From positions 341,838-405,837 of the forward strand of contig JAVJQW010000062.1 of the NCBI GenBank assembly GCA_040218735.1: DNA of 64,000 nucleotides. The letters run 5' to 3'. This DNA is from Deltaproteobacteria bacterium (GTDB lineage: Bacteria; Myxococcota; Kuafuiibacteriia; Kuafuiibacteriales; Kuafuiibacteriaceae). This document shows positions 40,317-58,106 of this stretch, in pieces. Both the position numbers and the translations under genes were made by a program. Numbering within the stretch: position 1 is the first letter of the stretch; each line of letters begins with the position of its first letter. The notes beneath the pieces were generated by a model. The model was not told the origin of the DNA. It searched no databases and was given only the letters and a program-made list of their open reading frames with translations.

Positions 40317-42803
40317 TTGATCGCGGCCGCCCGGCCCCCTATGCGAGGAGCCCACGTGCTGAAGGCCCTGACCAACTTCCTGATCGCGCGCCACCGGATG
40401 GCGCTGATCGTCGCGTTGGTCAGCTCGGCGCCGATGCTCTACTGGTCCACGCTCCTGTTCGCCGACGTCCGGGCCGACCTCAAGGAGCTGCTCCCCAAGA
40501 GCGCGCCGAGTGTCCTGACGCTGCGGGAGCTGGAGCGCCGGTTCGGCGGGTTCTCGCAGCTGTCGATCGTCGTGACCTCGCCGGACGCGGAGGCGAACCG
40601 GCGCTTCTCGGACGACCTTGTCGCGAAGCTCGAGCAAGCACCGCAGATCCGATCCATCCGCAACAAACTCGGCGAGGAGAAGAAGTTCTTCGAGCCGCGC
40701 CGGCACCTCTACGTCGACCTCGAAGACCTGGAGGAGATCGAGGAGCGCATCGAGGACGCGATCCACGACGCGAAGGTCGCCGCGAACCCGTTGCTCGTCG
40801 ACCTGTCCGACATGTCCACGAAGGTCACCCTCGACTTCTCGGACATCGAAAAGAAGTACGAGGGCGAGCTGAGCCTCGCGAAGCGCTTCCCGAACGACTA
40901 CTTCGAGTCGAAGGACAAGACCGAGCTCGCGGTGATCCTCCGGCAGCGCGGGCTGGCGTTCGGGCTGGAGCGCAACCAGGCGCTCGTCGCGCTGGTGGAG
41001 GGCACGGTCGCGGAGCTGAATCCGGCGTCGTACCACCCGGACCTCGTCGTCGGCCTCGGCGGCGACGTGAAGAACCTGATCGAGGAGACGACCTCGCTCG
41101 TGGAGGACCTCGTCCTCGCGTCGGTGGTGGTCGCGATCCTCCTCGCGCTCGTCGTGGTCGGTTACTACCGCCGGCTGCGGTCGATGCTCCTGATCGCGAT
41201 ACCGCTCTACGTCGGGTGTGTGTGGACGTTCGGGCTGTCGCACTTCCTCGTCGGCTACCTCAACGCGTCGACGGCGTTCCTCGGGCCGATCGTGCCCGGC
41301 AACGGCATCAACTTCGGGCTGATCCTGCTCGCGCGTTACATCGAAGAGCGCCGCGCGGGGACGCCGGTGGACCGCGCGATCCACACCGCGGTGGAGTTCA
41401 CCGCGAAGGCCACGATCACCGCGGCGGTCGCGGCGTCTATCGCCTACGGGTCGCTGATGGTGACCGACTTCCTCGGGTTCAAACACTTCGGGGTCATCGG
41501 CGGCATCGGCATGGTGCTGTGCTGGATCGCGACCTTCGTCGTGCTGCCGCCGCTCATCGTCTTCGTGGAGCGGCGCTGGCCCATGGACCCGTCGAAGGAG
41601 CGCTTCAAGCTCTACGAGTCGGGGCGCCTCGCCGCCCTCCCCGCGCGCTGGGTCGGTCGGCACGCGCGCCTCCTCGCGTGGTTCGGGCTCGTGACAGGGC
41701 TGGCGGCGGTCGTCGTCACCGTGCTGTTCCTGAAGGACCCGCTCGAGAAGGACTTCGAGAAGCTCCGGAACACCGGCGCGCACGAAAAGGGCGCGGCGTA
41801 CTGGGAGAAGAAGGTCGACAAGATCTTCGGGCGGTACCTCGCGCCGCAGGTGATCATCGCCGAGAAGAAGTCCGACGTTCCGCAGATCGTCGCGGCGCTC
41901 GAGAAGGTCATCGACGAGCAGGGGGACAACAGCCCGGTATCGGACGTCGACGCGCTCTCGACGCTGGTGCCCAAGAACCAGGAGGACAAGATCGAGGTCC
42001 TCGAGCGCATCCGCGAGCTCTTGAACGACGACCTCATCGCGCAGCTCGACGACGACCAAGCCGAGATCGCCAAACAGCAGCGGCCCCCCGCCGACCTCGA
42101 GCCGTTCGGCGAACAGGACCTCCCGGAGGGGATCCGCGCCGACTTCCGCGAGCTCGACGGCCGCGAGGGGCTCGTCGTGCTCGTGCTCCCGAACCTGAAG
42201 CTGAACCTCTACCACGCCGACGAGATCCGCCGCGTCGCCGAGGTGCTCCGCGACATCCCGCTCTCGGACGGGCGGCGCGTGGAGTCGTCGGGTTCGTTCG
42301 TGATCTACACGGACATGGTGGAAGCCGTCTCCATCGACGGACCGCGCGCGACCATCTACTCGTTCCTCGGTGTCCTGATCCTGTGCGCGTTGGTGTTCGT
42401 GCGACCGCGGCGGGTGTTCTTCGTCGTGACGCCGCTGCTGCTCGGCGTCGCGTGGTTGTTCGCGCTGCTCGCGATCTACGACCTCAAGATCAACTTCCTG
42501 AACTTCATCGCGCTGCCGATCACCTTCGGCATCGGCGTCGACTACGCAGTGAACATCTTCTCGCGCCACCTGATCGAGAAGGAGTCCGCCCCGCCCCCGA
42601 AGGCGATCGAACGCGCCGTCGCCTCCACCGGCGGCGCGGTGGTGCTGTGCTCGCTGACGACGATCATCGGCTACGGCTCGCTCCTCCTCGCGAGGAACGG
42701 CGCGCTGATCTCGTTCGGGAAGGTCGCGATCCTCGGCGAGCTGACGTGCCTGGTCGCGGCGATCATCGTGATGCCCGCGTGGATCGCGCGCTGGGATCGC
42801 TGA
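40317..42803 (+). CDS. MMPL/RND lipid transporter (HpnN-like)
   Basis: Two TM bundles with 'GNGINFG' and 'GIGVDYA', 'LTTIIGYGSL'. Confidence 0.85.
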   Translation: MIAAARPPMRGAHVLKALTNFLIARHRMALIVALVSSAPMLYWSTLLFADVRADLKELLPKSAPSVLTLRELERRFGGFSQLSIVVTSPDAEANRRFSDDLVAKLEQAPQIRSIRNKLGEEKKFFEPRRHLYVDLEDLEEIEERIEDAIHDAKVAANPLLVDLSDMSTKVTLDFSDIEKKYEGELSLAKRFPNDYFESKDKTELAVILRQRGLAFGLERNQALVALVEGTVAELNPASYHPDLVVGLGGDVKNLIEETTSLVEDLVLASVVVAILLALVVVGYYRRLRSMLLIAIPLYVGCVWTFGLSHFLVGYLNASTAFLGPIVPGNGINFGLILLARYIEERRAGTPVDRAIHTAVEFTAKATITAAVAASIAYGSLMVTDFLGFKHFGVIGGIGMVLCWIATFVVLPPLIVFVERRWPMDPSKERFKLYESGRLAALPARWVGRHARLLAWFGLVTGLAAVVVTVLFLKDPLEKDFEKLRNTGAHEKGAAYWEKKVDKIFGRYLAPQVIIAEKKSDVPQIVAALEKVIDEQGDNSPVSDVDALSTLVPKNQEDKIEVLERIRELLNDDLIAQLDDDQAEIAKQQRPPADLEPFGEQDLPEGIRADFRELDGREGLVVLVLPNLKLNLYHADEIRRVAEVLRDIPLSDGRRVESSGSFVIYTDMVEAVSIDGPRATIYSFLGVLILCALVFVRPRRVFFVVTPLLLGVAWLFALLAIYDLKINFLNFIALPITFGIGVDYAVNIFSRHLIEKESAPPPKAIERAVASTGGAVVLCSLTTIIGYGSLLLARNGALISFGKVAILGELTCLVAAIIVMPAWIARWDR

Positions 42804-42814
42804 CCCGAGGCACG

Positions 42815-44398
42815 TCAGAACAGGTGGCGCCGCATGCTCACGGAGAGCAGCAGCCCGATCGCGATCATCGTCGTCAGCACGAACGAGCCGCCGTTGCTCC
42901 ACAGCGGGAGCGGCACGCCGACGACCGGCGCGAGGCGCAAGACCATCAGCATGTTCACGACGGTGTGCCAGAACAGCATCGCCGTCGCGCCGACGGCGAG
43001 GAGCGCACCGAAGCGATCGCGCGCGCGCACCGCGATGCGCAGCGCCAGCACGATCAGCGCCGCGAAGAGCCCGACGAGCAACATACACCCGAGGAAGCCG
43101 TGCTCCTCGGCCCACACCGAGAAGATGAAGTCGGTCTGCTGCTCCGGGAGGAAGGAGAGCTGCGTCTGCGTGCCCTGGCCGTGGCCCTTCCCCATCACCT
43201 CGCCGCTGCCGATCGCGATGAGGCTCTGGTGTTGGTGGTAGCCGGCGCCCGCGAGGTCACTCGTCGGGTTGAGGAACGTCAGCACCCGCTCCTTCTGGTA
43301 CGGCTTGAGCACCACGAGCCACGCGGCGGCGCCGCTGATGAGGCCCCCCGAAAACAGCAGGACGAGCGACGAGGGTCGCAAACCCACGTAGAGGATCATC
43401 GTGAACGCGATGAGGAGCACGACGAGCGTGGTCCCCAGATCCGGCTGCACGAGGATAAGCGCGCAGGGGATCGCGACGACGTCGATCGGCGCGATCAGCG
43501 CTTCGAACGAGAGATCGCGCCGCCGGTACAGCGTCACGAACGCCGCCATCAACCAGAGGAAGCCGACGATCGCGACCCACGGCAGGAGCGGTCGGATGCG
43601 CTCCATCGATGCGCGGTAGGTGAGCTCCGCGCGCTGGTTGGTTCCGAAGCGCACCACGTCGCCGTCGTGCAGCACCGCACGCTCCGCGATGCGCTCGCCG
43701 TTGAGGTACACACCGGACTGCTTCGTGAGGTCGACGATGACCCGCTCGCCCTCCTCGTTCACCTCGATGCGCGCGTGGTTTCGGGCGACGCCGGAGTGTT
43801 GGAGCTTCACGTCGACGTCGCCGACGCGGCCGATCGTTTGCACCGCGTCGCCGCGCAGGCGCAGCACCGTGCGCGGGCGGTTCCGGAACTGCTTCGTCAG
43901 CTTCGGTGGCTTCACGGTCTCGCCGAAGATCGACAGCACGATCACCGCGACGATCACCAACACCGGCCGCGACACGTTGAGCGGCCGGAAGATCTCCTGC
44001 AGCGTGAGACCGCCCTCCCACTGCGACATGTGGAACGTCTTCGCGACGATGATGATCACCGCGATCTTCGCCAGGTCCGACGTCTGGAGGTTGAGGGGCC
44101 CCAACACCAACCACCGGCGAGAGCCGTTCACCACCTTCCCGAACATGCTCGTCGCGACCAGCAGCGCCACGACGAACAGGAAGATGGGGACCGCGAGCCC
44201 CTCGATGTTGCGGTAGTGCACCGACGCGATCGCCGCGACGATCACCGCGCCGAGGAACATCGCCATGCCCTGCTTCACGTGGAGGTCGGCGCCGAGCGGC
44301 TGGCTCGCGGACGCGAGGTTGTAGAGTCCCAGCGTGGCGATCGCGATGACGACCAACAGCAGCGGCCGGTCGATCTGCTTCAGTGCGCCGCGTGCCAC
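42815..44398 (-). CDS. rodA: Rod shape-determining SEDS glycosyltransferase RodA with an inserted TM-FHA-TM module
   Basis: GSRRW, QPDLGT, YQKERV, GYHQHQSLIAIGSG, FLPEQQTDFIF; downstream of mrdA; start taken at GTG 44398 (527 aa). Confidence 0.93.
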   Translation of the reverse strand: MARGALKQIDRPLLLVVIAIATLGLYNLASASQPLGADLHVKQGMAMFLGAVIVAAIASVHYRNIEGLAVPIFLFVVALLVATSMFGKVVNGSRRWLVLGPLNLQTSDLAKIAVIIIVAKTFHMSQWEGGLTLQEIFRPLNVSRPVLVIVAVIVLSIFGETVKPPKLTKQFRNRPRTVLRLRGDAVQTIGRVGDVDVKLQHSGVARNHARIEVNEEGERVIVDLTKQSGVYLNGERIAERAVLHDGDVVRFGTNQRAELTYRASMERIRPLLPWVAIVGFLWLMAAFVTLYRRRDLSFEALIAPIDVVAIPCALILVQPDLGTTLVVLLIAFTMILYVGLRPSSLVLLFSGGLISGAAAWLVVLKPYQKERVLTFLNPTSDLAGAGYHQHQSLIAIGSGEVMGKGHGQGTQTQLSFLPEQQTDFIFSVWAEEHGFLGCMLLVGLFAALIVLALRIAVRARDRFGALLAVGATAMLFWHTVVNMLMVLRLAPVVGVPLPLWSNGGSFVLTTMIAIGLLLSVSMRRHLF

Positions 44399-46590
44399 GG
44401 GTGCTCCGGATCGATCGTCGCCACGCGCACCGCGGACGGCGGCAACGACGCGCGCTGCTGGTTCATGTCGTGCCACGCCTGGATGACACGCATCGCGATG
44501 GGCGCCGCCGCGGACGAGCCACCACCGCCGTGCTCGACGAGCACCACGACGACGACCTCGGGATCGTCGGACGGCGCGAAGGCGCCAAACCAGGCGTGGT
44601 CGCGCACCTTCCAGGGGAGCTTCGAGGCACGCACGCGCACCTTGCCGAGCTTCGCGACCTGCGCGGTGCCCGTCTTCCCCGAGACCTGCACGTCCTTCAG
44701 GCGCTTGCGGTACGCCGTCCCGAACGGCTCGTTCACGACCTGCCGCAGCCCCTCGCGTACCCCGGCGAGCGCCCCCGGCGGGAGGTCGAGCTGGCGTAGG
44801 GCTTCGGGCGGGATCGGTCGGACTGCCTTGCCGTCGTACGACTCGATGCGCAAGGCGACTTGCGGGCGATAGACCGTGCCGCCGTTGGCGATCGCCGCGT
44901 ACGACACCGCGAGCTGCAGCGGCGTCACGCTCACGGCGCCCTGCCCGATCGACGCGTTCACGGCGGCGCCGAGGGTGTACCCCTCCGGCAGGTGTTTTCG
45001 GTACCAGTTCGAGTCCGGCATGATGCCGCGCGACTCCGCGGCGAGCTGCACGCCGGTCATCTCGCCGAACGAGAGCGCGCGCCCCATCTCGGCGATCGGG
45101 TCGAGCCCGAGGCGCGCGCCGAGGGTGTAGTAGTAGACGTCGCAGGATCGGGCGAACGACTTGTGCAAGTCGATCATCCCGTGGCCGCTCTCCTTCCAAC
45201 AGCGGAAGCGCGTGCGCCCGAGGCGGTACGCGCCGGGGCAGCGGATCTGCTCGCGCTCGTTGGTGACCCCCGCCTTCAACGCGGCGAGCGCGGTGACCAC
45301 CTTGAACGTCGAGCCGGGCGCGAAGTAGTCCTGGATCGCGCGGAAGCGCCACGGCCGCAGCTCGCGCATCTCGTCGAGGCGTCGCTTCTCCTTCGGGTCG
45401 AAGTAGCCGGCGAGCAGGTTCGGATCGAAGGACGGCGTCGAAGTCATCGCGAGGATGCGCCCGGTCTGGGCTTCGAGCGCGACGATCGCCCCCGCGCGCC
45501 CGCTGAAGGCGTCCTCGGCCGCCTGCTGGAGCCCGAGGTCCATCGTGAGGACGACGCGGTTCCCCGGCGTGGGCTCGACGTGCACGCCGACCTCCTCGTC
45601 GAGGCGCCGCGCGAACTTCGACTGCTGCGCGCGGCCCTTCGAATCGACGACGATCGTCTCGCGGCCGTCAGTACCGCGCAGCTCCTCCTCGAACGTGTTC
45701 TCGATGCCGCGCCGACCGATCGAGTCGCCGAGTCGGTAGCCCTGGTCGCGCCGCTCTTCGAGCTCCGTGGGTGACAGCTCGTTCACGTATCCGAGCACGT
45801 GCGCCGCGAGCTCGCCGTGTTCGTAGTGGCGCGCCTTCGCGCTCTCGACCGTGACCCCGGGCAGCTCGCCGAGCTGGACGAGCAACCCGATCTGACCCTC
45901 GACGCCGAGGGAGACATCGCGACGGACGAGGATGCCGCGGTACTTGTCGAGCCCGCGCGTGCGGCGGATGCGGCGCTCGAGCGCCTTCATCGCGTCCTCG
46001 TCGAGGTTCATCGCGTCGCGGAGGCGGCGCATCACGAGGCCGCGGCTCGGGAAGTGGTCGGGGTCGATGTACACCGCGAACTCCGGGGGATCGCGGGGGA
46101 CCTCGATGATCGGGATCGCGTCGAGGTCGAGCTCGAGCGACTCCGCGACGCGACGCACGCGACGCGCGCGCCGACGCGACAAGCCCTTCGCGACGAGGAT
46201 CGCGGGCCCGTCCTCCTTCACGGCCTTCGACAACGCGACGGAGATGACTTCGCCTTCTTCGCGCGACAGGCCCGAGACGGAGGCGAGGCGCAGGACGTTC
46301 TTCTTTGCGTCGGGGAAGAAGGCCGGTGTGACGTAGACGTTGACCGAGGGGCGGTTCGTGACGAGCACACGCCCGTGGCGATCGACGATCTCCCCGCGCT
46401 CGTGTTCGAGGCGGCGCGTCTGGAAGAAGTTGCTCTTGGACTTGTCGAGGAAGGCGTCGCCCTCCTGGATCTGGAGCATGTAGAGGCGGATCGCGATCAC
46501 CGAGAACGCGCCGAGCGCGATCGCGCCCATCACGATCGCGCGACGTATCGCGACCGAGGGGTCGCGCTCCGCGGTGCCCGGCGCGCTCAC
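44380..46590 (-). CDS. mrdA: Penicillin-binding protein 2
   Basis: RGEIVDRHG, AHVLGYV, PGSTFK (SxxK), SCD, KTGTAQ, DHAWF. Confidence 0.95.
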   Translation of the reverse strand: MSAPGTAERDPSVAIRRAIVMGAIALGAFSVIAIRLYMLQIQEGDAFLDKSKSNFFQTRRLEHERGEIVDRHGRVLVTNRPSVNVYVTPAFFPDAKKNVLRLASVSGLSREEGEVISVALSKAVKEDGPAILVAKGLSRRRARRVRRVAESLELDLDAIPIIEVPRDPPEFAVYIDPDHFPSRGLVMRRLRDAMNLDEDAMKALERRIRRTRGLDKYRGILVRRDVSLGVEGQIGLLVQLGELPGVTVESAKARHYEHGELAAHVLGYVNELSPTELEERRDQGYRLGDSIGRRGIENTFEEELRGTDGRETIVVDSKGRAQQSKFARRLDEEVGVHVEPTPGNRVVLTMDLGLQQAAEDAFSGRAGAIVALEAQTGRILAMTSTPSFDPNLLAGYFDPKEKRRLDEMRELRPWRFRAIQDYFAPGSTFKVVTALAALKAGVTNEREQIRCPGAYRLGRTRFRCWKESGHGMIDLHKSFARSCDVYYYTLGARLGLDPIAEMGRALSFGEMTGVQLAAESRGIMPDSNWYRKHLPEGYTLGAAVNASIGQGAVSVTPLQLAVSYAAIANGGTVYRPQVALRIESYDGKAVRPIPPEALRQLDLPPGALAGVREGLRQVVNEPFGTAYRKRLKDVQVSGKTGTAQVAKLGKVRVRASKLPWKVRDHAWFGAFAPSDDPEVVVVVLVEHGGGGSSAAAPIAMRVIQAWHDMNQQRASLPPSAVRVATIDPEHPWHAAH

Positions 46591-46604: not shown

Positions 46605-46982
46605 TCATCGCTGCGAAACGGACAGGACGTTGTGGTCCGGATCCTCGAACCACGCGATCCGCACCCCCGCGCCGGGGACCGTCCACACGCCGGCGTCGTC
46701 CTGGTCCATCCCGTCGTAGCGGAGGAACTCGACGCCGTGCTCCCCGAGCGCAGCCATCGTGGCGTCGAGGTCGGGGACCTGAAAGTCGAGGACCGTCCAC
46801 GGCTGGGGCGTCAGGTCCTGCACCTTGCCGACGCGCAGCTCGCCGTTCGCGAGCGCGAAGACCACCGCGAACGGGGAGTCGTCGGTGCACGAGAGGCCGA
46901 GGACCTCGGTGTAGAAGGCCTTGCAGCGGTCACTGTCCGTGGTGCCGAGGAAGAAGGAGGTCGGCGCGGCGGCGAGGGTCAT
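46605..46982 (-). CDS. VOC/glyoxalase-family protein
   Basis: FYTEVLGL, 'FQVPDLDAT', 'AWFEDPDHNVL'. Confidence 0.88.
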   Translation of the reverse strand: MTLAAAPTSFFLGTTDSDRCKAFYTEVLGLSCTDDSPFAVVFALANGELRVGKVQDLTPQPWTVLDFQVPDLDATMAALGEHGVEFLRYDGMDQDDAGVWTVPGAGVRIAWFEDPDHNVLSVSQR

Positions 46983-47033: not shown

Positions 47034-50000
47034 CTACCTCACGACGAAGCCGATCGTCGCCGCCCCGAAGTTGCCGATCCGATCGATCTCCTGCAGCGCG
47101 CCGTCCGGCGCGATGTCGAAGCCGATCGTCGTCCCGGCGCCGTCGTACGCCCACGTCGTGTACAGCGCGCGACCGTCGGGGGTGATCTCCATCTCGGTGA
47201 CCTCGGAGCCGATGTCGAACCCCGTGAACCCGTTGCTCGCGTCGCCGTCGGCGTCGATCTCCCGGAGGACCTGGGACGAGTCGAACGCAGTCTCGTACAT
47301 GAAGATCGCCTGCCCGCTCGCGACGTAGAGCCGACGCCCGTCGGGGCTGAGCGCCATGCTCGAGGGGTCGGGCTCCATCTGGAACGCGCCCGAAGTCAGC
47401 GACCGGATCGTCCGCTGCACCTCGTTCACCTCGAGCACGGTGAGATGCCCCCTGGTGAACCCGGCGTGCAGCAGCAGGAAGTGCTGTCCGTCCGGCGTCA
47501 GCACGACGTCCTCGAACCCGCTCAGGTCCACGTTCCCGCGCATCATCGGCTGCGGCTCGAGCTCACCGATCGGGCCGAGGGTCGGGTCGCGGTTGATGGC
47601 GTAGACCGCCCAGTCGCCCACACAGGATCCGGCCACGAACAGGAAGCGCCCGTTGTCCGCGACCTTCACGAAGTCGGCGCCGCAGTTGGTGCCGTTGAGG
47701 TCGCCGATGCGCTGCTCCACGGTCAAGCTCCCGTCCTCCGCGATGGCGAACCGCATGATGTCGCTGAAGCCGGCCGCGTAGAGAATCGGCTCGAAGGGAT
47801 CGATCGCCACCTCCTGGATGATGTTGTTGGTCATCGAGAGCTGGTTCCGAGCGATCGTGTGGGCGTGCGTGCTCGGGTCGACGTTCCAGACGTTCACGCC
47901 GCGCGGACCGGCCGCTCCGTAGCCCCCCGCCGAGAAGCCGAAGAGGCCGTCCTTGGAGTAAACGATGTCCGCGAAGTTGCCGAGGTTGCCGACCAACGGT
48001 GACGCCGCGATCTCCGACAGCCACCGGTCCTCACCCACCGCGAAGGTCCGCAAGCCAACTTGCAACGCGACGACCTGCGGCGCGCAGTCGAAGTTCGGCG
48101 TCGCGTCGTCGGGCGTCAGCGGCATCACTTCGCAGCGATCCTCGAGGCCGTCGTCGTCGGTGTCCGGGTTGTTCGGGTCGGTGCCCGCGTCGCGCTCCTC
48201 GGCGTCGGTCCAGCCGTCGAGATCGCTGTCGACGCGCGTGGGGTTCGAGTAGACGCGGTAGGTCACGGTCGACGCCGTCCCCACGGGTGCGTCGAAGTCT
48301 ATCCTCACGTTCCAACCCGCGCGGAGCTCGACGTAGTCGAACAGCCCGTCGCCGTCGGTGTCGGGCTCGTCGTCCGCGCTGCCGTAGATCAACTCCTCGC
48401 GCGCCATGACGCCGTCGCCGTCCTCGTCGCGGAGGTAGACCAACCGAACCTCGTCCCCCGCCAACAGCCGGATGTCCTCGAACGGGAGGTCCGCGCGCGC
48501 CTGCTCGTCGCGCTGCGTGTAGATGATCCACACCCGCTCCGGGTCGCCGAGGATCCCCGCCGCCGGATCTCCGCGGTCCGCCGCGCGCGCGTTCGCGACG
48601 CCGCCGAGGGACTCCAGCTCATCGACCATCACCGTCGCCCCGTCGACCGCGCGCTCGACGGACTTCGTCGTGAAGTCGACTTCGACGATGTCCCGCAGCA
48701 CGTCACCCATGCGAACCCCGGCGAACGCACCGTCCGGCTCGCGGTTCACGTTGGTCGCGACCTGGTAACGCGACGGCGGCCCGATGCCGTCGTCGATCAC
48801 GAGCGTCGCGGTGCGCGCGAACGTCTCTTCGGTGAGGAAGTCGAAGTCGACGCCGTCGCGGTCACTCAACGCAAACCGCGCCGGGCTGAAGAAGACCGCC
48901 TGCGGCCGCGCGAGGAAGCCCTTCACGACGTCGGTGTTCACCGCGGTGTTCTCGACCTGGATGATCTGCTCCTCGTTCGGCGCGAGCACGACGGGCTCCG
49001 GCACGGCCATCTGGAGCGTCGTCAGCGTGCGGTAACCGCCCGCACCCTGGGCGTCGGGCCGCGGCGAGGCCTGCCACTGAAACATCGTGAGCGAAGGCGG
49101 CGACAGCTCGAACGTCGAGATTCCTACGTTCTTGATCCGCACGCCGACCGAGACCGTGCCGTCGGCCGCCGTCTCCGAGGAGCTCTGCGCGTCGGTGCGG
49201 TAGTTGCTGTAGGCCTCCGTCGCGGACTCGGACGACTCGCGGGTGAGCGTCGTCGACGTGGTGTTCGTCGTCTCGGGCGTCGGCGGCTCACACGCACCGA
49301 GGGTGTCGGCCGCGTCCGAGAACGCGCCGTTCGACAGCCCGTCCAAGAAGCCGACCGCCTCCACCAGCTCCTGGGGCGCGCTGGAGTCGAACGCGGCCTC
49401 GCCGCCCGCCACCTGCTGGCACGCCGCGTCGCGCGCGAGCTCGAGCGCCTTGCCCGCCACGAACTTCAGCGCGCCCTCCTTGCTCAGCTCGAGGTCGTCG
49501 AAGAACCCGTCGCCGCCCTTCGACGCGGCCATCGTGATCGTCGTGCTCTCCATGTCGGAGCGCGACATGCGGCTCGACTGCGTGGTCGAGAACTCCTCGC
49601 CGTACGTCGTCTCCTGCCCGTTGCTCTCCTCGTAGGTCACGTTGAGGAGGACGGCGAGGTCGCCGGCGATCGCAATCTCCGCCTGGGGGATCTCGGCGAT
49701 GCGCGGGTCGCGGACCGTGGAGTCGAGCTCTTCGTAGTCGGTCTTGCCGTCGCCGTCGGTGTCCGCGAGCGTGGGCGACGTGCCGGCGGCGAGCTCGGAC
49801 GCGTCGAAGAGCGCGGCGAGCGGGAGCGTGGTGCCGGACGGGTCACGCGCGTCGCCGTCGCTGTCGACGGAGAGGACGTTCGATCGGTACTGCGTCATCT
49901 CGACGCCGTCGGCGAGCCCGTCGCCGTCGGAGTCCGCGCGGCTGGGGTCGAAGCGGTTCTGAAACTCCTCGAGGTCGCCGAGGCCGTCACCGTCGGTGTC

Positions 50001-50297
50001 GGGGTTCGCGGGATTGCTCGTGACCTGGCGCCGCGTGACGAACTCGGCGTCAGCCGCCAAACCGTAGCCGCGGTCGTCGACGACGATCTCCCAGCCGGCG
50101 AGCTCGTCCTCGTCGCGCAGGCCGTCGCCGTCGGTGTCGTGGCCGGGCCCGTCGCTGCAGACGAACGCGATGCAATAGAGCCCGTCCGAGCAGTCGTCCG
50201 CGGCCGCGCAGGCGTTTTTGTCGCCCGCGTCGAGGCCACCGCACGCCGCGAGGGTCAGCAGCGCGCTGAAGACAAGGGCTCGATCTCGATGCTTCAT
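47034..50297 (-). CDS. Large lipoprotein with DxDGDG Ca-binding repeats, a binary-toxin-B/protective-antigen-like core and a C-terminal beta-propeller
   Basis: Lipobox LAAC; Cys-rich motif; repeated D-T/S-DGDG; Ser/Thr-rich strands; C-terminal SPDG/TPDG lactonase-type blades. Confidence 0.75.
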   Translation of the reverse strand: MKHRDRALVFSALLTLAACGGLDAGDKNACAAADDCSDGLYCIAFVCSDGPGHDTDGDGLRDEDELAGWEIVVDDRGYGLAADAEFVTRRQVTSNPANPDTDGDGLGDLEEFQNRFDPSRADSDGDGLADGVEMTQYRSNVLSVDSDGDARDPSGTTLPLAALFDASELAAGTSPTLADTDGDGKTDYEELDSTVRDPRIAEIPQAEIAIAGDLAVLLNVTYEESNGQETTYGEEFSTTQSSRMSRSDMESTTITMAASKGGDGFFDDLELSKEGALKFVAGKALELARDAACQQVAGGEAAFDSSAPQELVEAVGFLDGLSNGAFSDAADTLGACEPPTPETTNTTSTTLTRESSESATEAYSNYRTDAQSSSETAADGTVSVGVRIKNVGISTFELSPPSLTMFQWQASPRPDAQGAGGYRTLTTLQMAVPEPVVLAPNEEQIIQVENTAVNTDVVKGFLARPQAVFFSPARFALSDRDGVDFDFLTEETFARTATLVIDDGIGPPSRYQVATNVNREPDGAFAGVRMGDVLRDIVEVDFTTKSVERAVDGATVMVDELESLGGVANARAADRGDPAAGILGDPERVWIIYTQRDEQARADLPFEDIRLLAGDEVRLVYLRDEDGDGVMAREELIYGSADDEPDTDGDGLFDYVELRAGWNVRIDFDAPVGTASTVTYRVYSNPTRVDSDLDGWTDAEERDAGTDPNNPDTDDDGLEDRCEVMPLTPDDATPNFDCAPQVVALQVGLRTFAVGEDRWLSEIAASPLVGNLGNFADIVYSKDGLFGFSAGGYGAAGPRGVNVWNVDPSTHAHTIARNQLSMTNNIIQEVAIDPFEPILYAAGFSDIMRFAIAEDGSLTVEQRIGDLNGTNCGADFVKVADNGRFLFVAGSCVGDWAVYAINRDPTLGPIGELEPQPMMRGNVDLSGFEDVVLTPDGQHFLLLHAGFTRGHLTVLEVNEVQRTIRSLTSGAFQMEPDPSSMALSPDGRRLYVASGQAIFMYETAFDSSQVLREIDADGDASNGFTGFDIGSEVTEMEITPDGRALYTTWAYDGAGTTIGFDIAPDGALQEIDRIGNFGAATIGFVVR

Positions 50298-50407: not shown

Positions 50408-50935
50408 TCAAAAGAACTGCTCGTCGCGCGGGCGCAGCTTCGCGTCGACGCGCGAGAACAGGGCGTACAGCGGGTAGCCGAGGAGCACGGCGCCGAGGAA
50501 CAGCGACAACAGCCCCGGGCTCATCGAGGTCACCGTGGAGCGCCCCGGGCCGAGCGTCGCCTGCATCAGCAGGCGCACGACGAGCCCGAGCACCGTGGTC
50601 GCCACGACGATCGCGGCGACGATCGGCGGGCGCGAGCCGACGATGCGGAAGACGAAGAGCCGCAGGAGGAGGAACTGGATCACCGTCGACGCCCAGTACA
50701 GGCCCTTCGGCTCGCCCGAGAACAGGTCCGCGAGGTAACCGACGCCGAACGCCGCGATGAGCCCGGCGAACAGCTCGAGCTCGAGCGACAGGAACACGAC
50801 GATCGGCGCGACCACGTCGAGGCGGAGCGAGGGCGAGCGCGACAGGACGCTGTTCGTCGCGAGCACGAAGGTCGCGACGCCGAACAGCGCCGCGAAGCGA
50901 AGCGCCGCCCCCTGGTTCGGAGCCGGGCCGCTCAC
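50408..50935 (-). CDS. mreD: Rod shape-determining protein MreD
   Basis: Hydrophobic; 'AFGVGYLADLFSG'; GTG start overlaps the mreC stop. Confidence 0.8.
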   Translation of the reverse strand: MSGPAPNQGAALRFAALFGVATFVLATNSVLSRSPSLRLDVVAPIVVFLSLELELFAGLIAAFGVGYLADLFSGEPKGLYWASTVIQFLLLRLFVFRIVGSRPPIVAAIVVATTVLGLVVRLLMQATLGPGRSTVTSMSPGLLSLFLGAVLLGYPLYALFSRVDAKLRPRDEQFF

Positions 50936-51843
50936 GGGTGGGCCTCCGCGGTGCTGGTGTCGACCTGGAGCGACGGCGGCAACAGCGGCTCGGGCGTGGC
51001 GATGATCTCGGGGCTCTCGGGAGCGACCACGATCGCGACGGTCTCGAGCCGCGCGAAGTCGACGTACGGGACGACGTCCGCGATGCGGTGCTGTACGCCG
51101 ACCTCGACGCGCACGTTCTTCACCACGCCGACGAACAACCCGCGCGGGAACACACCGCCCAACCCGTTGGTGACGATCTGATCGCCGACCTCGACGTCGT
51201 CGGAGCGCAACACCTCGGTGAGCTGCACGCGGAAGTCCGGGCCGAGCCCCATCCCGCGGATGCGCCCGCGCGCGCGGGTGCGCAGGACCGACGCGTGAAA
51301 GCTCACCTTGTCGTCCGCGATCAACAGCACCTCCGACTGCTTCCACCCCACGCGCTGCACGACGCCGACGAGGCCGCGACCGTCCGTAACCGTCTGGCCC
51401 AGCTCGACGCCGTCGAGGGCGCCGCGATCGACGAGGATCGTGCGCGCGGTCGGCGACGTGCCGGCGCCGGTCACCTTCGCGACGACGAGGTCGAGCGAAG
51501 GGTTGTCGTGATCGACGAGGAGGATCTGGCGCAGGTGTTCGTTCTCCACGCCGAGGTCCGCGAGGCGATCCCGCTCCAAGTCGAGCTTCCGGAGGCGCTG
51601 CTTCAGCTCCGCGTTCTCTTCGCGCGCGCCGACCACATCGACGTAGTTCGACCAGCCGTCGCTCACGATCCCGACCGCGCCGACCATCAGGCTCTGTAGC
51701 GGGCCCGTCACGAGGAGGACCACGCGGTCGAAGACGTTCAGATCCCCGGGCACCTTATCCTGGGATCGGTAGACGATGAGCGGGAGCAGCACCGTCACGA
51801 GGACGGCGATCGGCTTACGGTGGCGTTTGAGAAACGCGAACAA
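50932..51843 (-). CDS. mreC: Rod shape-determining protein MreC
   Basis: 'EENAELK', 'ENEHLRQIL', 'GLVG', 'GLGGVFPRGL'; follows mreB. Confidence 0.92.
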   Translation of the reverse strand: MFAFLKRHRKPIAVLVTVLLPLIVYRSQDKVPGDLNVFDRVVLLVTGPLQSLMVGAVGIVSDGWSNYVDVVGAREENAELKQRLRKLDLERDRLADLGVENEHLRQILLVDHDNPSLDLVVAKVTGAGTSPTARTILVDRGALDGVELGQTVTDGRGLVGVVQRVGWKQSEVLLIADDKVSFHASVLRTRARGRIRGMGLGPDFRVQLTEVLRSDDVEVGDQIVTNGLGGVFPRGLFVGVVKNVRVEVGVQHRIADVVPYVDFARLETVAIVVAPESPEIIATPEPLLPPSLQVDTSTAEAHP

Positions 51844-51849
51844 AAGACC

Positions 51850-52881
51850 TCAGCTCACTGCAATCTTGTGGAGCAGGTCGAGCTTGTCGAGGGTGTCGCC
51901 GATCCCGCGCACGACGGCGCACGTCGGATCGTCGCAGACCATGACCGGGAGGCCGGTCTCGGTGCGGAGCAGGACGTCGAGGTTCTTGAGGAGCGATCCA
52001 CCGCCGGCGAGGACGATCCCGCGGTCCACGATGTCCGCCGCGAGCTCGGGCGGGGTGCGCTCCAGCGAGACGCGGACGGCCTCGACGATCGAGCTGACGG
52101 TCTCGGAGAGGGCCTCGCGGATCTCGTCGGAGTTGAGGACGACGCCCATCGGGACCCCGCCGACCACGTCGCGGCCCTTGACCTCCATCTCTTCGAGGGA
52201 GTCCGTGGGGGCCGCCGAGCCGATCTTCTTCTTCACCTCCTCGGCGGTCTGCTCGCCCAAGAGGAGGTTGTAGCGGCGTTTGACGTACTGCGAGATGGCT
52301 TCGTCCATCTTCTCCCCGCCCAGGCGGACCGAGTTGGCGAAGACGATCCCGCTGAGGCTGATGACGGCGACCTCGGTCCGGCCGCCGCCCACGTCGACGA
52401 TCATGTTGCCGGAGGGCTCGGTGATCGGGAGGTTGGCGCCAATCGCGGCGGCCATCGGCTCCTCGATGATGAACACCTCGCGGGCCCCGGCGGTCGTCAC
52501 GGCCTCCCGGACGGCGCGTTTTTCGACCTCGGTGACCCCGACCGGGGTGCACACGATGGTCCGCGGCGCCGCAAGGCTTCGATTTCCTTGCACCTTCTTG
52601 ATGAAGTACCGGAGCATCGCCGAGACGGACTCGAAGTCGGCGATGACGCCGTTCCGCATGGGGCGGATGGCCTCGATGCCCGTCGGGGTGCGCCCGAGCA
52701 TCTCCTTGGCGGCCGTCCCGACCGCGGAGACCTTCCGTGCGCCCGTGTGATCCCGCGCGACGGCCACGACGGTGGGCTCGTTGGCCACGATGCCCTCGCC
52801 CCGGGCGAAGATCCGCGTGTTCGAGGTGCCGAGATCGATCGCGAGATCGTTGGACAGAAAGCCCTTGAGCCACTTGAACAT
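51850..52881 (-). CDS. mreB: Cell shape protein MreB
   Basis: AIDLGTSNT, GVIADF, EEPMAAAIGA, PPELAADI, GGGSLL. Confidence 0.97.
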   Translation of the reverse strand: MFKWLKGFLSNDLAIDLGTSNTRIFARGEGIVANEPTVVAVARDHTGARKVSAVGTAAKEMLGRTPTGIEAIRPMRNGVIADFESVSAMLRYFIKKVQGNRSLAAPRTIVCTPVGVTEVEKRAVREAVTTAGAREVFIIEEPMAAAIGANLPITEPSGNMIVDVGGGRTEVAVISLSGIVFANSVRLGGEKMDEAISQYVKRRYNLLLGEQTAEEVKKKIGSAAPTDSLEEMEVKGRDVVGGVPMGVVLNSDEIREALSETVSSIVEAVRVSLERTPPELAADIVDRGIVLAGGGSLLKNLDVLLRTETGLPVMVCDDPTCAVVRGIGDTLDKLDLLHKIAVS

Positions 52882-56910: not shown

Positions 56911-57513
56911 CTACGTCCTCTGAGGCCACCGCCCCGGCGAGGCCCCTGCCCTCGGCGCCCCCGTCTCGATCCACGTCAGAAACGCGGCCGGCGAATAGAA
57001 CCGCGTCACCAGCGCCCCGACCGTCAGCACCGCGCCCGGGTACAGCTCGGCGCGCCCGTGGGCGGTGATCCGGACCTCGTCCAGGAACGTCCCGTTGCGC
57101 GCGCCGAGATCGTTCACGAAGCACCGATCCCGATCCTCGCCCCACAGGATCTCCGCGTGAAAGCGCGACACACTCTCGTCGAGCAGCACGATGTCGGCGT
57201 CCGGCGAGCGCCCGAGCGAGACGCGGTTGGTGTGTTGGCCGCGTTTGGGGCGGACCTCCAGGCAGAGGGCGTCGAGGCTCGCGCCGACGAGCGCCTGCGA
57301 CGACAGGTCGATCTCCGTCGTCGTCGTCGACTCCTGGATCACGGTCTCCGGGCGCCGGATCCGGAACAGCACGTCCGGGCTCGGCTCGGGTACGACGAGC
57401 ATCGGCCACGCGTAGCGCGCCAGGAACTCGGCACGGCTGAGGGATGCGGCGTCGGCGAGGTAGGCGTCGAGCGGTGCGAGGTTATCGCGGAGCATCGGGG
57501 CTTCGTGACCCAT
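56911..57513 (-). CDS. FHA-domain protein (canonical motifs)
   Basis: LGRS..DIVL.DESVSRFHA...DLGARNGT; start at 57513 or 57495. Confidence 0.88.
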   Translation of the reverse strand: MGHEAPMLRDNLAPLDAYLADAASLSRAEFLARYAWPMLVVPEPSPDVLFRIRRPETVIQESTTTTEIDLSSQALVGASLDALCLEVRPKRGQHTNRVSLGRSPDADIVLLDESVSRFHAEILWGEDRDRCFVNDLGARNGTFLDEVRITAHGRAELYPGAVLTVGALVTRFYSPAAFLTWIETGAPRAGASPGRWPQRT

Positions 57514-57554
57514 CTTCGGACCCACCGAACCTCGGCGCAATGGGCGAACCCCGA

Positions 57555-58106
57555 TCAGGGCGGCTCGAGCTCGTAGCGTTCGACGTCGTCGGGCGCGTCG
57601 ACGTCGATCAGGGGTGCGTCCAGCTCCACGTACGTCGCGTCGAGCGCAGCGAGGAGGCGGTGCATCGCGCGCGGCATCGGATCCACGGCGAGCAGCGCAT
57701 CCCGTGAGAACACGCTGATCATCGACTGCTGCATCCCATCGTGTCGCCCTACGGCCGCACGCGCCCCACCTTCGACCGCCGCGAGCAGCGTCTTCGCGAC
57801 GTCGACCGGCGGATCGACGAGGTCCCCACCGACGAGCAGGAGTGTCTTGGCATTGACGGCCCGCGCCGCTGCGAACAACGCAGCCGCCGGCCCTTCCCCC
57901 GGGTCTTCCAGGCAAGCGCCGATCGCCCCCAGCGCCGAATGCATCGAGGCCGGCGCGACGACGTACGCGTCATCGACGAGCGGCGCGAACCGTTCGAGCG
58001 CGTGCGCGAGGAGCGTTTGTCCGTCGGCGCGACGGAGCAGCGGTTTGACGACGCCGCCGAGCCGACGCCCTCGCCCGCCCGCGAGGACGAGCAACGCGAC
58101 GTTCAG
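57555..58106 (-). CDS. mobA: Molybdenum cofactor guanylyltransferase
   Basis: LAGGRGRRLGG..K, 'GPAAAL', 'GDL', 'DVDAPDD'; start uncertain (CTG 58106 or TTG 58094). Confidence 0.8.
   Translation of the reverse strand: MNVALLVLAGGRGRRLGGVVKPLLRRADGQTLLAHALERFAPLVDDAYVVAPASMHSALGAIGACLEDPGEGPAAALFAAARAVNAKTLLLVGGDLVDPPVDVAKTLLAAVEGGARAAVGRHDGMQQSMISVFSRDALLAVDPMPRAMHRLLAALDATYVELDAPLIDVDAPDDVERYELEPP

Follow-up and report, generated by a model that had tools for sequence, protein, structure and literature searches.

SEDS polymerases are essential enzymes and drug targets, and how they are switched on from the periplasm is a standing question. The canonical RodA proteins of Thermus thermophilus (6BAR/6PL5) and Escherichia coli (8TJ3) consist of a core of ten transmembrane helices (TM1 to TM10) that carries the catalytic motifs, and are paired with a class B penicillin-binding protein (PBP). 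As set out in the available sections of PMC10449877, in the E. coli RodA-PBP2 complex TM2, TM3, TM4 and TM10 line acceptor cavity B, TM5 and TM6 together with their periplasmic loop frame donor cavity A, TM3 to TM7 form a mobile bundle, and the pyrophosphate of lipid II is held by periplasmic Arg residues of both RodA cavities. Here, we consider a RodA encoded on the minus strand, at 42815..44398, of a 64,000-nucleotide stretch of DNA (hereafter the window) from a Deltaproteobacteria bacterium of the Myxococcota family Kuafuiibacteriaceae (assembly GCA_040218735.1, contig JAVJQW010000062.1, positions 341,838 to 405,837). It has the core, the catalytic motifs and the PBP pairing of canonical RodA, but is ~165 residues longer where TM4 meets TM5, the addition comprising two further helices (X1 and X2) and a folded forkhead-associated (FHA) domain, for a predicted total of 12 spans. 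Our overall explanation, to which we assign a probability of roughly 0.7, is that a lineage-specific hairpin of two helices would have been inserted at the cytoplasmic TM4/TM5 junction of the organism's sole RodA, with an FHA beta-sandwich of ~100 amino acids (aa) grafted on its tip as a phospho-independent periplasmic module.

FHA domains read phosphothreonine (pThr), which they contact through the Arg of a GR motif, the Ser of S-x-x-H and the Asn of N-G. Set beside pThr-binding representatives such as GarA/OdhI, FhaA and Rad53 FHA1, the RodA domain has the same beta-sandwich, a strong Pfam score, the Gly and Arg of GR and the structural His, but is without the Ser and Asn throughout its family, forms part of a membrane enzyme into which it is nested, and most likely lies outside the cytoplasm; if so, it would widen the use of the FHA fold beyond the reading of phosphothreonine in cytoplasm or nucleus. 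The FHA-like domains of the YscD/PrgH type (PF16697), which are cytoplasmic, likewise serve as structural modules of a membrane machine with no canonical pThr reading, although the RodA domain scores below the cut-off of that family (31.2 against 33.2 bits). FHA modules are also tied to a SEDS-class B PBP pair in the actinobacterial cell-wall cluster (fhaA, fhaB/fipA, pstP, rodA, pbpA, pknA, pknB). The FHA proteins of that cluster are separate, cytoplasmic and pThr-dependent, whereas the domain in the window is in cis, degenerate and predicted to be periplasmic. An actinobacterial FHA/rodA-pbpA-pknAB operon is mentioned in the available part of PMC6273383.

Outward-facing additions to SEDS proteins have a precedent in a 2025 survey of SEDS and class B PBP architectures (PMC12516126), the accessible part of which describes a SEDS polymerase to which a beta-rich domain, predicted to point out of the membrane, has been added; that domain is pedestal-like, is not of the FHA fold and is terminally fused, whereas the FHA domain of the window RodA is nested between added helices. 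The terms FHA, forkhead and Myxococc have 0 occurrences in the accessible main text of the survey, a count that does not extend to its supplementary tables. Within the partly accessible sources searched, neither a SEDS protein with an FHA domain nor a forkhead-associated domain located in the periplasm was found to be described, and literature matches for 'periplasmic FHA' concern filamentous haemagglutinin. The first-pass annotation, a reading of the window from its letters alone, had been aware of no described SEDS-FHA fusion; this stands for the literature searched but not for sequence databases, where ESM Atlas places PF01098 (SEDS) and PF00498 (FHA) in one polypeptide of 505-548 aa in 18 of 30 matches, with Bacillota the commonest phylum. 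These Bacillota clusters, whose automatically assigned names include 'FHA/Cell cycle protein domain-containing protein', resemble the window RodA in having both Pfam families in one chain, and none of them matched X1-FHA-X2 as a whole in an exhaustive phmmer search with the insert alone. Their FHA domain is presumably N-terminal and cytoplasmic. As such clusters exist, novelty lies not in the fusion of SEDS and FHA domains but in its nested and most likely outward-facing form.

The RodA core and its nested domain

The gene runs from a GTG start at 44398 to a stop at 42815 within a long minus-strand frame, and encodes 527 aa plus stop. The protein passes the cut-off of the RodA equivalog model TIGR02210 (363.7 bits, cut-off 336.7) and falls short of that of the FtsW model (273.9 against 337.5); the SpoVE model likewise failed. 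Pfam PF01098 matches it with an E-value of 4.3e-88, split in two stretches. An AlphaFold2 (AF2) model built with 53 homologues has a mean predicted local distance difference test score (pLDDT) of 83.2 and a predicted template-modelling score of 0.80, and Foldseek recovers from it the ten-helix SEDS fold, with target-normalised template-modelling scores (TM-scores) of 0.89 to 6pl5_A and 0.84 to 8tj3_B. Residues T422, D423, F424, P319, D320 and K111 are invariant across 53 sequences; the TDF residue Asp423, which lies between TM7 and TM8 (loop aa 365-434), aligns with the corresponding Asp of T. thermophilus RodA, and the QPD motif that follows TM5 is present. The role of the equivalent catalytic residue of E. 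coli, Asp262, is described in the available part of PMC10449877. By sequence, both the ten-helix core and the catalytic residues are intact, and the protein is assigned as a SEDS peptidoglycan glycosyltransferase working with PBP2, with predicted lipid II polymerase activity. The genome has two SEDS genes, the window rodA and an FtsW-like gene on contig C66; rodA is therefore its sole RodA-type SEDS gene, and its product the organism's only RodA.

Residues 10-122 and 310-524 align with residues 12-122 and 141-356 of T. thermophilus RodA (6bar), and ~187 aa stand in place of the ~18 aa of the canonical TM4-TM5 loop. On the N-terminal side the insert is preceded by TM4 (44033..44077, aa 108-122; this and all following features of the gene are on the minus strand), which contains the Asp108/Lys111 pair and is placed by hydropathy, by the 6bar alignment and by a model helix at 106-122. 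On the other side stands TM5 (43448..43507), located by alignment to 6bar, conservation and hydropathy, with an invariant A303-P304-x-D306 followed by QPDLGT. Between the two lie, in order: a junction motif, GGLTLQEIFRPLNVSRP (43964..44014, aa 129-145), predicted to be cytoplasmic and common to all insert-bearing RodA types, with P139, N141, R144 and P145 invariant in 53 sequences; helix X1 (43913..43972; helical at aa 143-162 in the model, with a hydrophobic core at 145-159), which is predicted to cross from inside to outside; the FHA-fold domain (43613..43912, aa 163-262); and helix X2 (43520..43609, model helix aa 264-293, hydrophobic core 271-291), predicted to return from outside to inside, in which W282 and L283 are nearly invariant and after which comes RRR. 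Hydropathy gives 12 hydrophobic segments, the additional two being X1 and X2, whose peaks (2.93 and 2.37) are on a par with those of the core helices, TM4 reaching only 1.78.

The FHA assignment is supported by profile and structure alike. Pfam PF00498 matches aa 188-252 (43643-43837) with an E-value of 6.6e-16 and 58.9 bits against a cut-off of 20.7, and the NCBIfam FhaB/FipA model gives a weak match to this part (E 6.1e-06) far below its cut-off. In the AF2 model the insert (pLDDT 76-90) is folded as the X1 helix, strands at 166-262 (pLDDT 76-88) and the X2 helix, and Foldseek aligns it with the FHA domains of GarA, OdhI and FhaA at TM-scores of 0.77-0.84 and a root-mean-square deviation (rmsd) of 2.4-2.6 over ~100 columns (GarA 6i2p_E, 0.77, rmsd 2.4 over 102 columns; FhaA 3oun_A, 0.84). 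On this evidence, the window encodes a RodA with a helix-FHA-helix unit nested at its TM4/TM5 junction, both the SEDS and the FHA fold being confirmed at the level of the model. The first-pass annotation had outlined a RodA of about 527 aa with a TM-FHA-TM insert at 43530-44010, which corresponds to aa 130-290: its coordinates and helices were correct, with Pfam, hydropathy, AF2 and Foldseek in agreement, and the nesting of PF00498 in a split PF01098 and the 12 segments came out as it had anticipated.

The insert series and the membrane side of the FHA domain

RodA was read from 28 loci of 26 families, of which 26 loci were parsed and two, unparsed, were left out. The distance between the end of TM4 and QPD separates a canonical type (29-32 aa; seven loci in seven families, that of Myxococcus xanthus among them), a hairpin type with X1, a short loop and X2 (90-106 aa; nine loci in seven families), a type with four extra helices (205-209 aa; eight loci in eight families) and the FHA type (194-196 aa; two loci in one family). 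All insert types open with R-P-(L/F)-N-x-(S/T)-R-P and close with A-P-(I/L/V)-D, and, as read from the sequences of the parsed loci, the extra helices number 0, 2 or 4, which is always even. In a tree built from the core alone, without the insert (33 rows, a quick method, rooted on three non-Myxococcota RodAs), the insert-bearing proteins form one clade with a Shimodaira-Hasegawa-like approximate likelihood ratio test support of 82. Within it the hairpin types branch at the base, while the FHA and four-helix types form sister clades (100 and 80, respectively) joined at 87; supports of 80-87 lie below the 95 mark, and to that extent count against our explanation. The order shown by these protein comparisons is canonical, then hairpin, then FHA or four-helix type, for which the simplest reading would be a single hairpin insertion at the cytoplasmic TM4/TM5 junction, with its outer tip elaborated twice. 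The series marks the RodA TM4/TM5 junction as an evolutionary hot spot and supplies natural comparison constructs.

The bare-hairpin RodAs, present at nine loci of many other Myxococcota families with the flanks RP(L/F)NxSRP and APID, have no description in the literature searched. The four-helix RodAs, known from eight loci and the proteins P0119 and P0120 and spanning at least eight families, have conserved W-x-K-P-W-L-x-D-P and R-D-P motifs in their predicted periplasmic loops and L-L-N-P-W-P-P-x-R-R-R in the predicted cytoplasmic middle loop.

Because the series appears to descend from a single hairpin at a cytoplasmic junction, because it is the outer tip that was elaborated, and because the helix count is even, a protein of 12 membrane helices with its FHA domain in the periplasm is, in our judgement, the probable topology. 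The loop charges of the four-helix sister type point the same way: among seven parsed proteins, the predicted cytoplasmic loops have net charges of +2.9 (TM4-X1) and +3.0 (middle loop) and the two predicted periplasmic loops are at ~0, which fits an X1 that runs from inside to outside, and the FHA tip is therefore most likely periplasmic.

Several features of the hairpin itself weigh against this topology. Firstly, no loop of the insert is as positive in the FHA type as the 21 aa that follow X1 (K+R 5.5, net +4.0), and the two loops predicted to be cytoplasmic reach only +1.5 and +1.1; the charge after X1, taken alone, favours a cytoplasmic FHA domain. Secondly, the hydrophobic core of X1 is only ~15 aa long, and X1 falls below the hydropathy threshold in two of the hairpin-type rows. 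The positive-inside rule is usually not applied to loops of ~100 aa, and as the FHA loop is of this length we read it as exempt; the K/R-rich stretch after X1 is already part of that domain in the AF2 model, where it makes up strands one and two. Application of the rule to the FHA type alone was set aside as ambiguous, the four-helix sister type being more informative. The periplasmic placement proposed in the first-pass annotation is thus supported by the even helix count and the four-helix loop charges, but the simple positive-inside argument on which it had relied runs counter to the charge after X1.

The same features would be accommodated if the FHA domain were cytoplasmic and coupled RodA to Ser/Thr kinase signalling, in the manner of the separate FHA proteins of the actinobacterial rodA-pbpA-pknAB cluster, with X1 and X2 as re-entrant or peripheral helices and not as spans. 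The K/R-rich linker and the short core of X1 both fit such an arrangement, as does a genome whose 95 FHA matches suit a kinase-rich organism. It is countered by the hydrophobicity of X1 and X2, which is like that of the core helices and goes with model helices of 20 and 30 residues, and by the hairpin-only and four-helix relatives, which can be understood only with X1 and X2 as membrane spans. What remains to be weighed is whether the domain could still read the product of a kinase, which leads to its ligand site.

The former phosphothreonine site and a possible role

Residue by residue, the RodA-FHA family (51 members) can be set against the 94 other FHA domains of the genome. The positions that support the fold are held in both: the Gly of GR (Gly190) in 51/51 and 93/94, and the structural His (His208) in 50/51 and 94/94, with the fold-defining Asn233 kept in 49/51 of the RodA family. 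The Arg of GR (Arg191), found in 40 of the 51 and in 69 of the 94, is also retained in the window protein, and its persistence is a further point for a cytoplasmic, signal-coupled domain. The other two contact positions differ sharply: the pThr-contact Ser is present in 7/51 (Ala 17, Glu 15, Asp 6) against 82/94, and the Asn of the N-G loop in 0/51 (Ala 19, Ser 13, Gly 9) against 76/94. The window RodA has Ala205 and Ser228 at these positions, and so lacks the full set of pThr-contact residues. Both substitutions had been correctly noted in the first-pass annotation by comparison with a protein at 56911-57915, which is indeed an FHA protein, and the degeneracy that it described for one domain extends, at both positions, to the whole family. 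The genome's FHA matches are all above the Pfam cut-off and form a very large complement, in which several proteins have two or three FHA domains.

Family-wide, then, the fold has been kept and the ligand site has not, such that pThr reading is no longer expected of the domain; this is the pattern to be expected of a domain removed from kinase substrates. For an FHA domain at work in the cytoplasm, the loss is awkward on two counts, as the cytoplasmic paralogues of the same genome largely keep Ser and Asn, and as 21 of the 51 family members have Glu or Asp at the phosphate-contact Ser position. With Arg191, the linker charge and the short X1 on one side, and the ligand site, the helix properties and the relatives on the other, we regard a cytoplasmic domain coupled to kinase signalling as unlikely. 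We also considered whether the former pThr pocket might bind a periplasmic ligand that carries phosphate, either undecaprenyl pyrophosphate or lipid II, which is unlikely given the same acidic residues.

If the domain is periplasmic, as we prefer, it could not meet kinase-made phosphothreonine and would act as a phospho-independent module. A hairpin between TM4 and TM5 would pack on the mobile TM3-7 bundle; since the acceptor cavity is lined in part by TM4 and the donor cavity framed in part by TM5, the FHA domain would stand beside the periplasmic cavity rims, and, with its conserved K/R-rich membrane-proximal base, might occupy the rim between both lipid II cavities. By analogy with the E. 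coli complex, it could there tune the handling of substrate and glycan or contact a periplasmic elongasome partner, a role that we put forward tentatively. More speculative still is the fullest version of this proposal, in which an FHA fold would work outside the cytoplasm, possibly as the first such case, acting in cis on RodA-PBP2, for example by gating the path of lipid II or glycan between the two cavities or by docking a periplasmic elongasome partner, and would form the end point of an undescribed Myxococcota series of RodA hairpins. On such a view the lineage would have hard-wired an extra folded domain next to both substrate cavities of its only RodA, in effect a natural experiment on the regulation of SEDS proteins from outside. 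The conservation pattern tempers this proposal, as no clearly conserved patch is found on the FHA surface (mean conservation 0.53) and no binding site can be named.

The same pattern gives some encouragement to the opposite view, that the FHA domain is a tolerated and functionless passenger, inserted once at the tip of an existing hairpin and since maintained by virtue of the essential RodA around it. No other part of the protein is as weakly conserved as the FHA part (0.46-0.54, with 0.67-0.80 for the core; within the insert, conservation peaks at 0.77 in the junction motif that precedes X1), its ligand-contact residues are lost, and Pfam no longer assigns the segment to the FHA family in two full-length clusters, P0074 and P0106. 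One must consider, however, that an open and foldable FHA unit has been retained among sequences that are only 51-88% identical, that Gly190, His208 and Asn233 are nearly universal in the family, that the PPKL/R-x-R linker flanking the domain is conserved, and that in the whole-genome scan with PF00498 the RodA domain scores 63.5 bits and ranks 39th of the 95 matches. We consider a mere passenger improbable, more so than a cytoplasmic signalling domain.

Distribution, authenticity and gene neighbourhood

PF01098 and PF00498 occur together in 114 of the 120 top-ranking protein clusters, at 51-88% identity to the query; they derive from several independent metagenome sources, and the few that are named belong to metagenome-assembled genomes (MAGs) of Myxococcota, Myxococcales or Deltaproteobacteria. 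A phylum sample of 401 genomes comprised 20 of the window's GTDB family (Kuafuiibacteriaceae) and 381 of 35 other Myxococcota families, one of the latter flagged as unpublished. A contiguous full-length match was obtained in 17 of the 20, covering 10 of 12 genera, and in 0 of the 381, where the listed RodA matches start at query residue 253-311. The three family genomes with no match are 86-93% complete, and two of them are also without a PBP2-type match. As far as these comparisons reach, the architecture is confined to one Myxococcota family, represented by uncultured MAGs where named, and the survey across the phylum that the first-pass annotation had called for thus finds it to be lineage-wide. 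The two that lack both a RodA-type and a PBP2-type match (88% and 93% complete) have only FtsW/FtsI-like matches, for which an assembly gap or a loss of the Rod system is possible.

Chimeric assembly and faulty gene calling can both be dismissed as sources of the architecture, there being no point in their favour and the same contiguous frame recurring in 17 genomes of 10 genera, in independent metagenome assemblies and in five named MAG records, with no stop codons inside any contiguous match.

The insert alone, searched by phmmer against 1.84 billion representatives, matched 10,909 FHA proteins, and the whole helix-FHA-helix unit was matched by three of the best 150, all three of them RodA. 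An N-terminal FHA-SEDS protein was sought among the matches, and PF01098 was absent from each of the 23 non-RodA proteins that were scanned, which are multi-FHA or other FHA proteins. A word search limited to the FHA part gave only five close relatives and no clue to the origin of the domain.

The gene neighbourhood is that of an elongasome RodA. Immediately upstream lies mrdA (44380..46590, minus), which encodes PBP2, a class B PBP of 736 aa with PF03717 dimerisation and PF00905 transpeptidase domains, and whose stop codon is overlapped by the GTG start of rodA. In the pedestal region of this PBP2, 259 residues are aligned to 172 profile positions of Pfam PBP_dimer. An extra segment of ~78 aa in the pedestal (query 113-190) was examined as a partner co-occurring with the RodA FHA domain and rejected: the segment is absent from PBP2 in five genomes of as many other families (G013, G014, G016, G017 and G018), and the PBP2 is contiguous in G015, which has a canonical RodA, and in G019, which has a hairpin RodA.

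Some 6.5 kb upstream of rodA, and belonging to the same elongasome, are mreB (51850-52881, minus; PF06723, E 2.6e-136) and mreC (50932-51843, minus; PF04085, E 1.5e-34 and 8.7e-35), which together span 50932..52881. Directly after mreC comes a hydrophobic, mreD-like open reading frame of ~170 aa (50408-50950, minus), probably mreD; its match to PF04093 (E 0.025, 15.1 bits) is below the cut-off of 24, and a whole-genome profile scan for MreD and RodZ_C gave no match. In many bacteria mreBCD and mrdA-rodA form a single cluster, which in the window is interrupted by genes for a protein of 1087 aa that contains a bacterial TSP3 repeat (47034-50297, minus) and for a small protein of the glyoxalase/VOC family (46605-46982, minus). 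On its other side rodA is convergent with a gene for an MMPL/RND-type transporter of 828 aa (40317-42803, plus; PF03176, E 1e-40), which lies 12 bases from the rodA stop.

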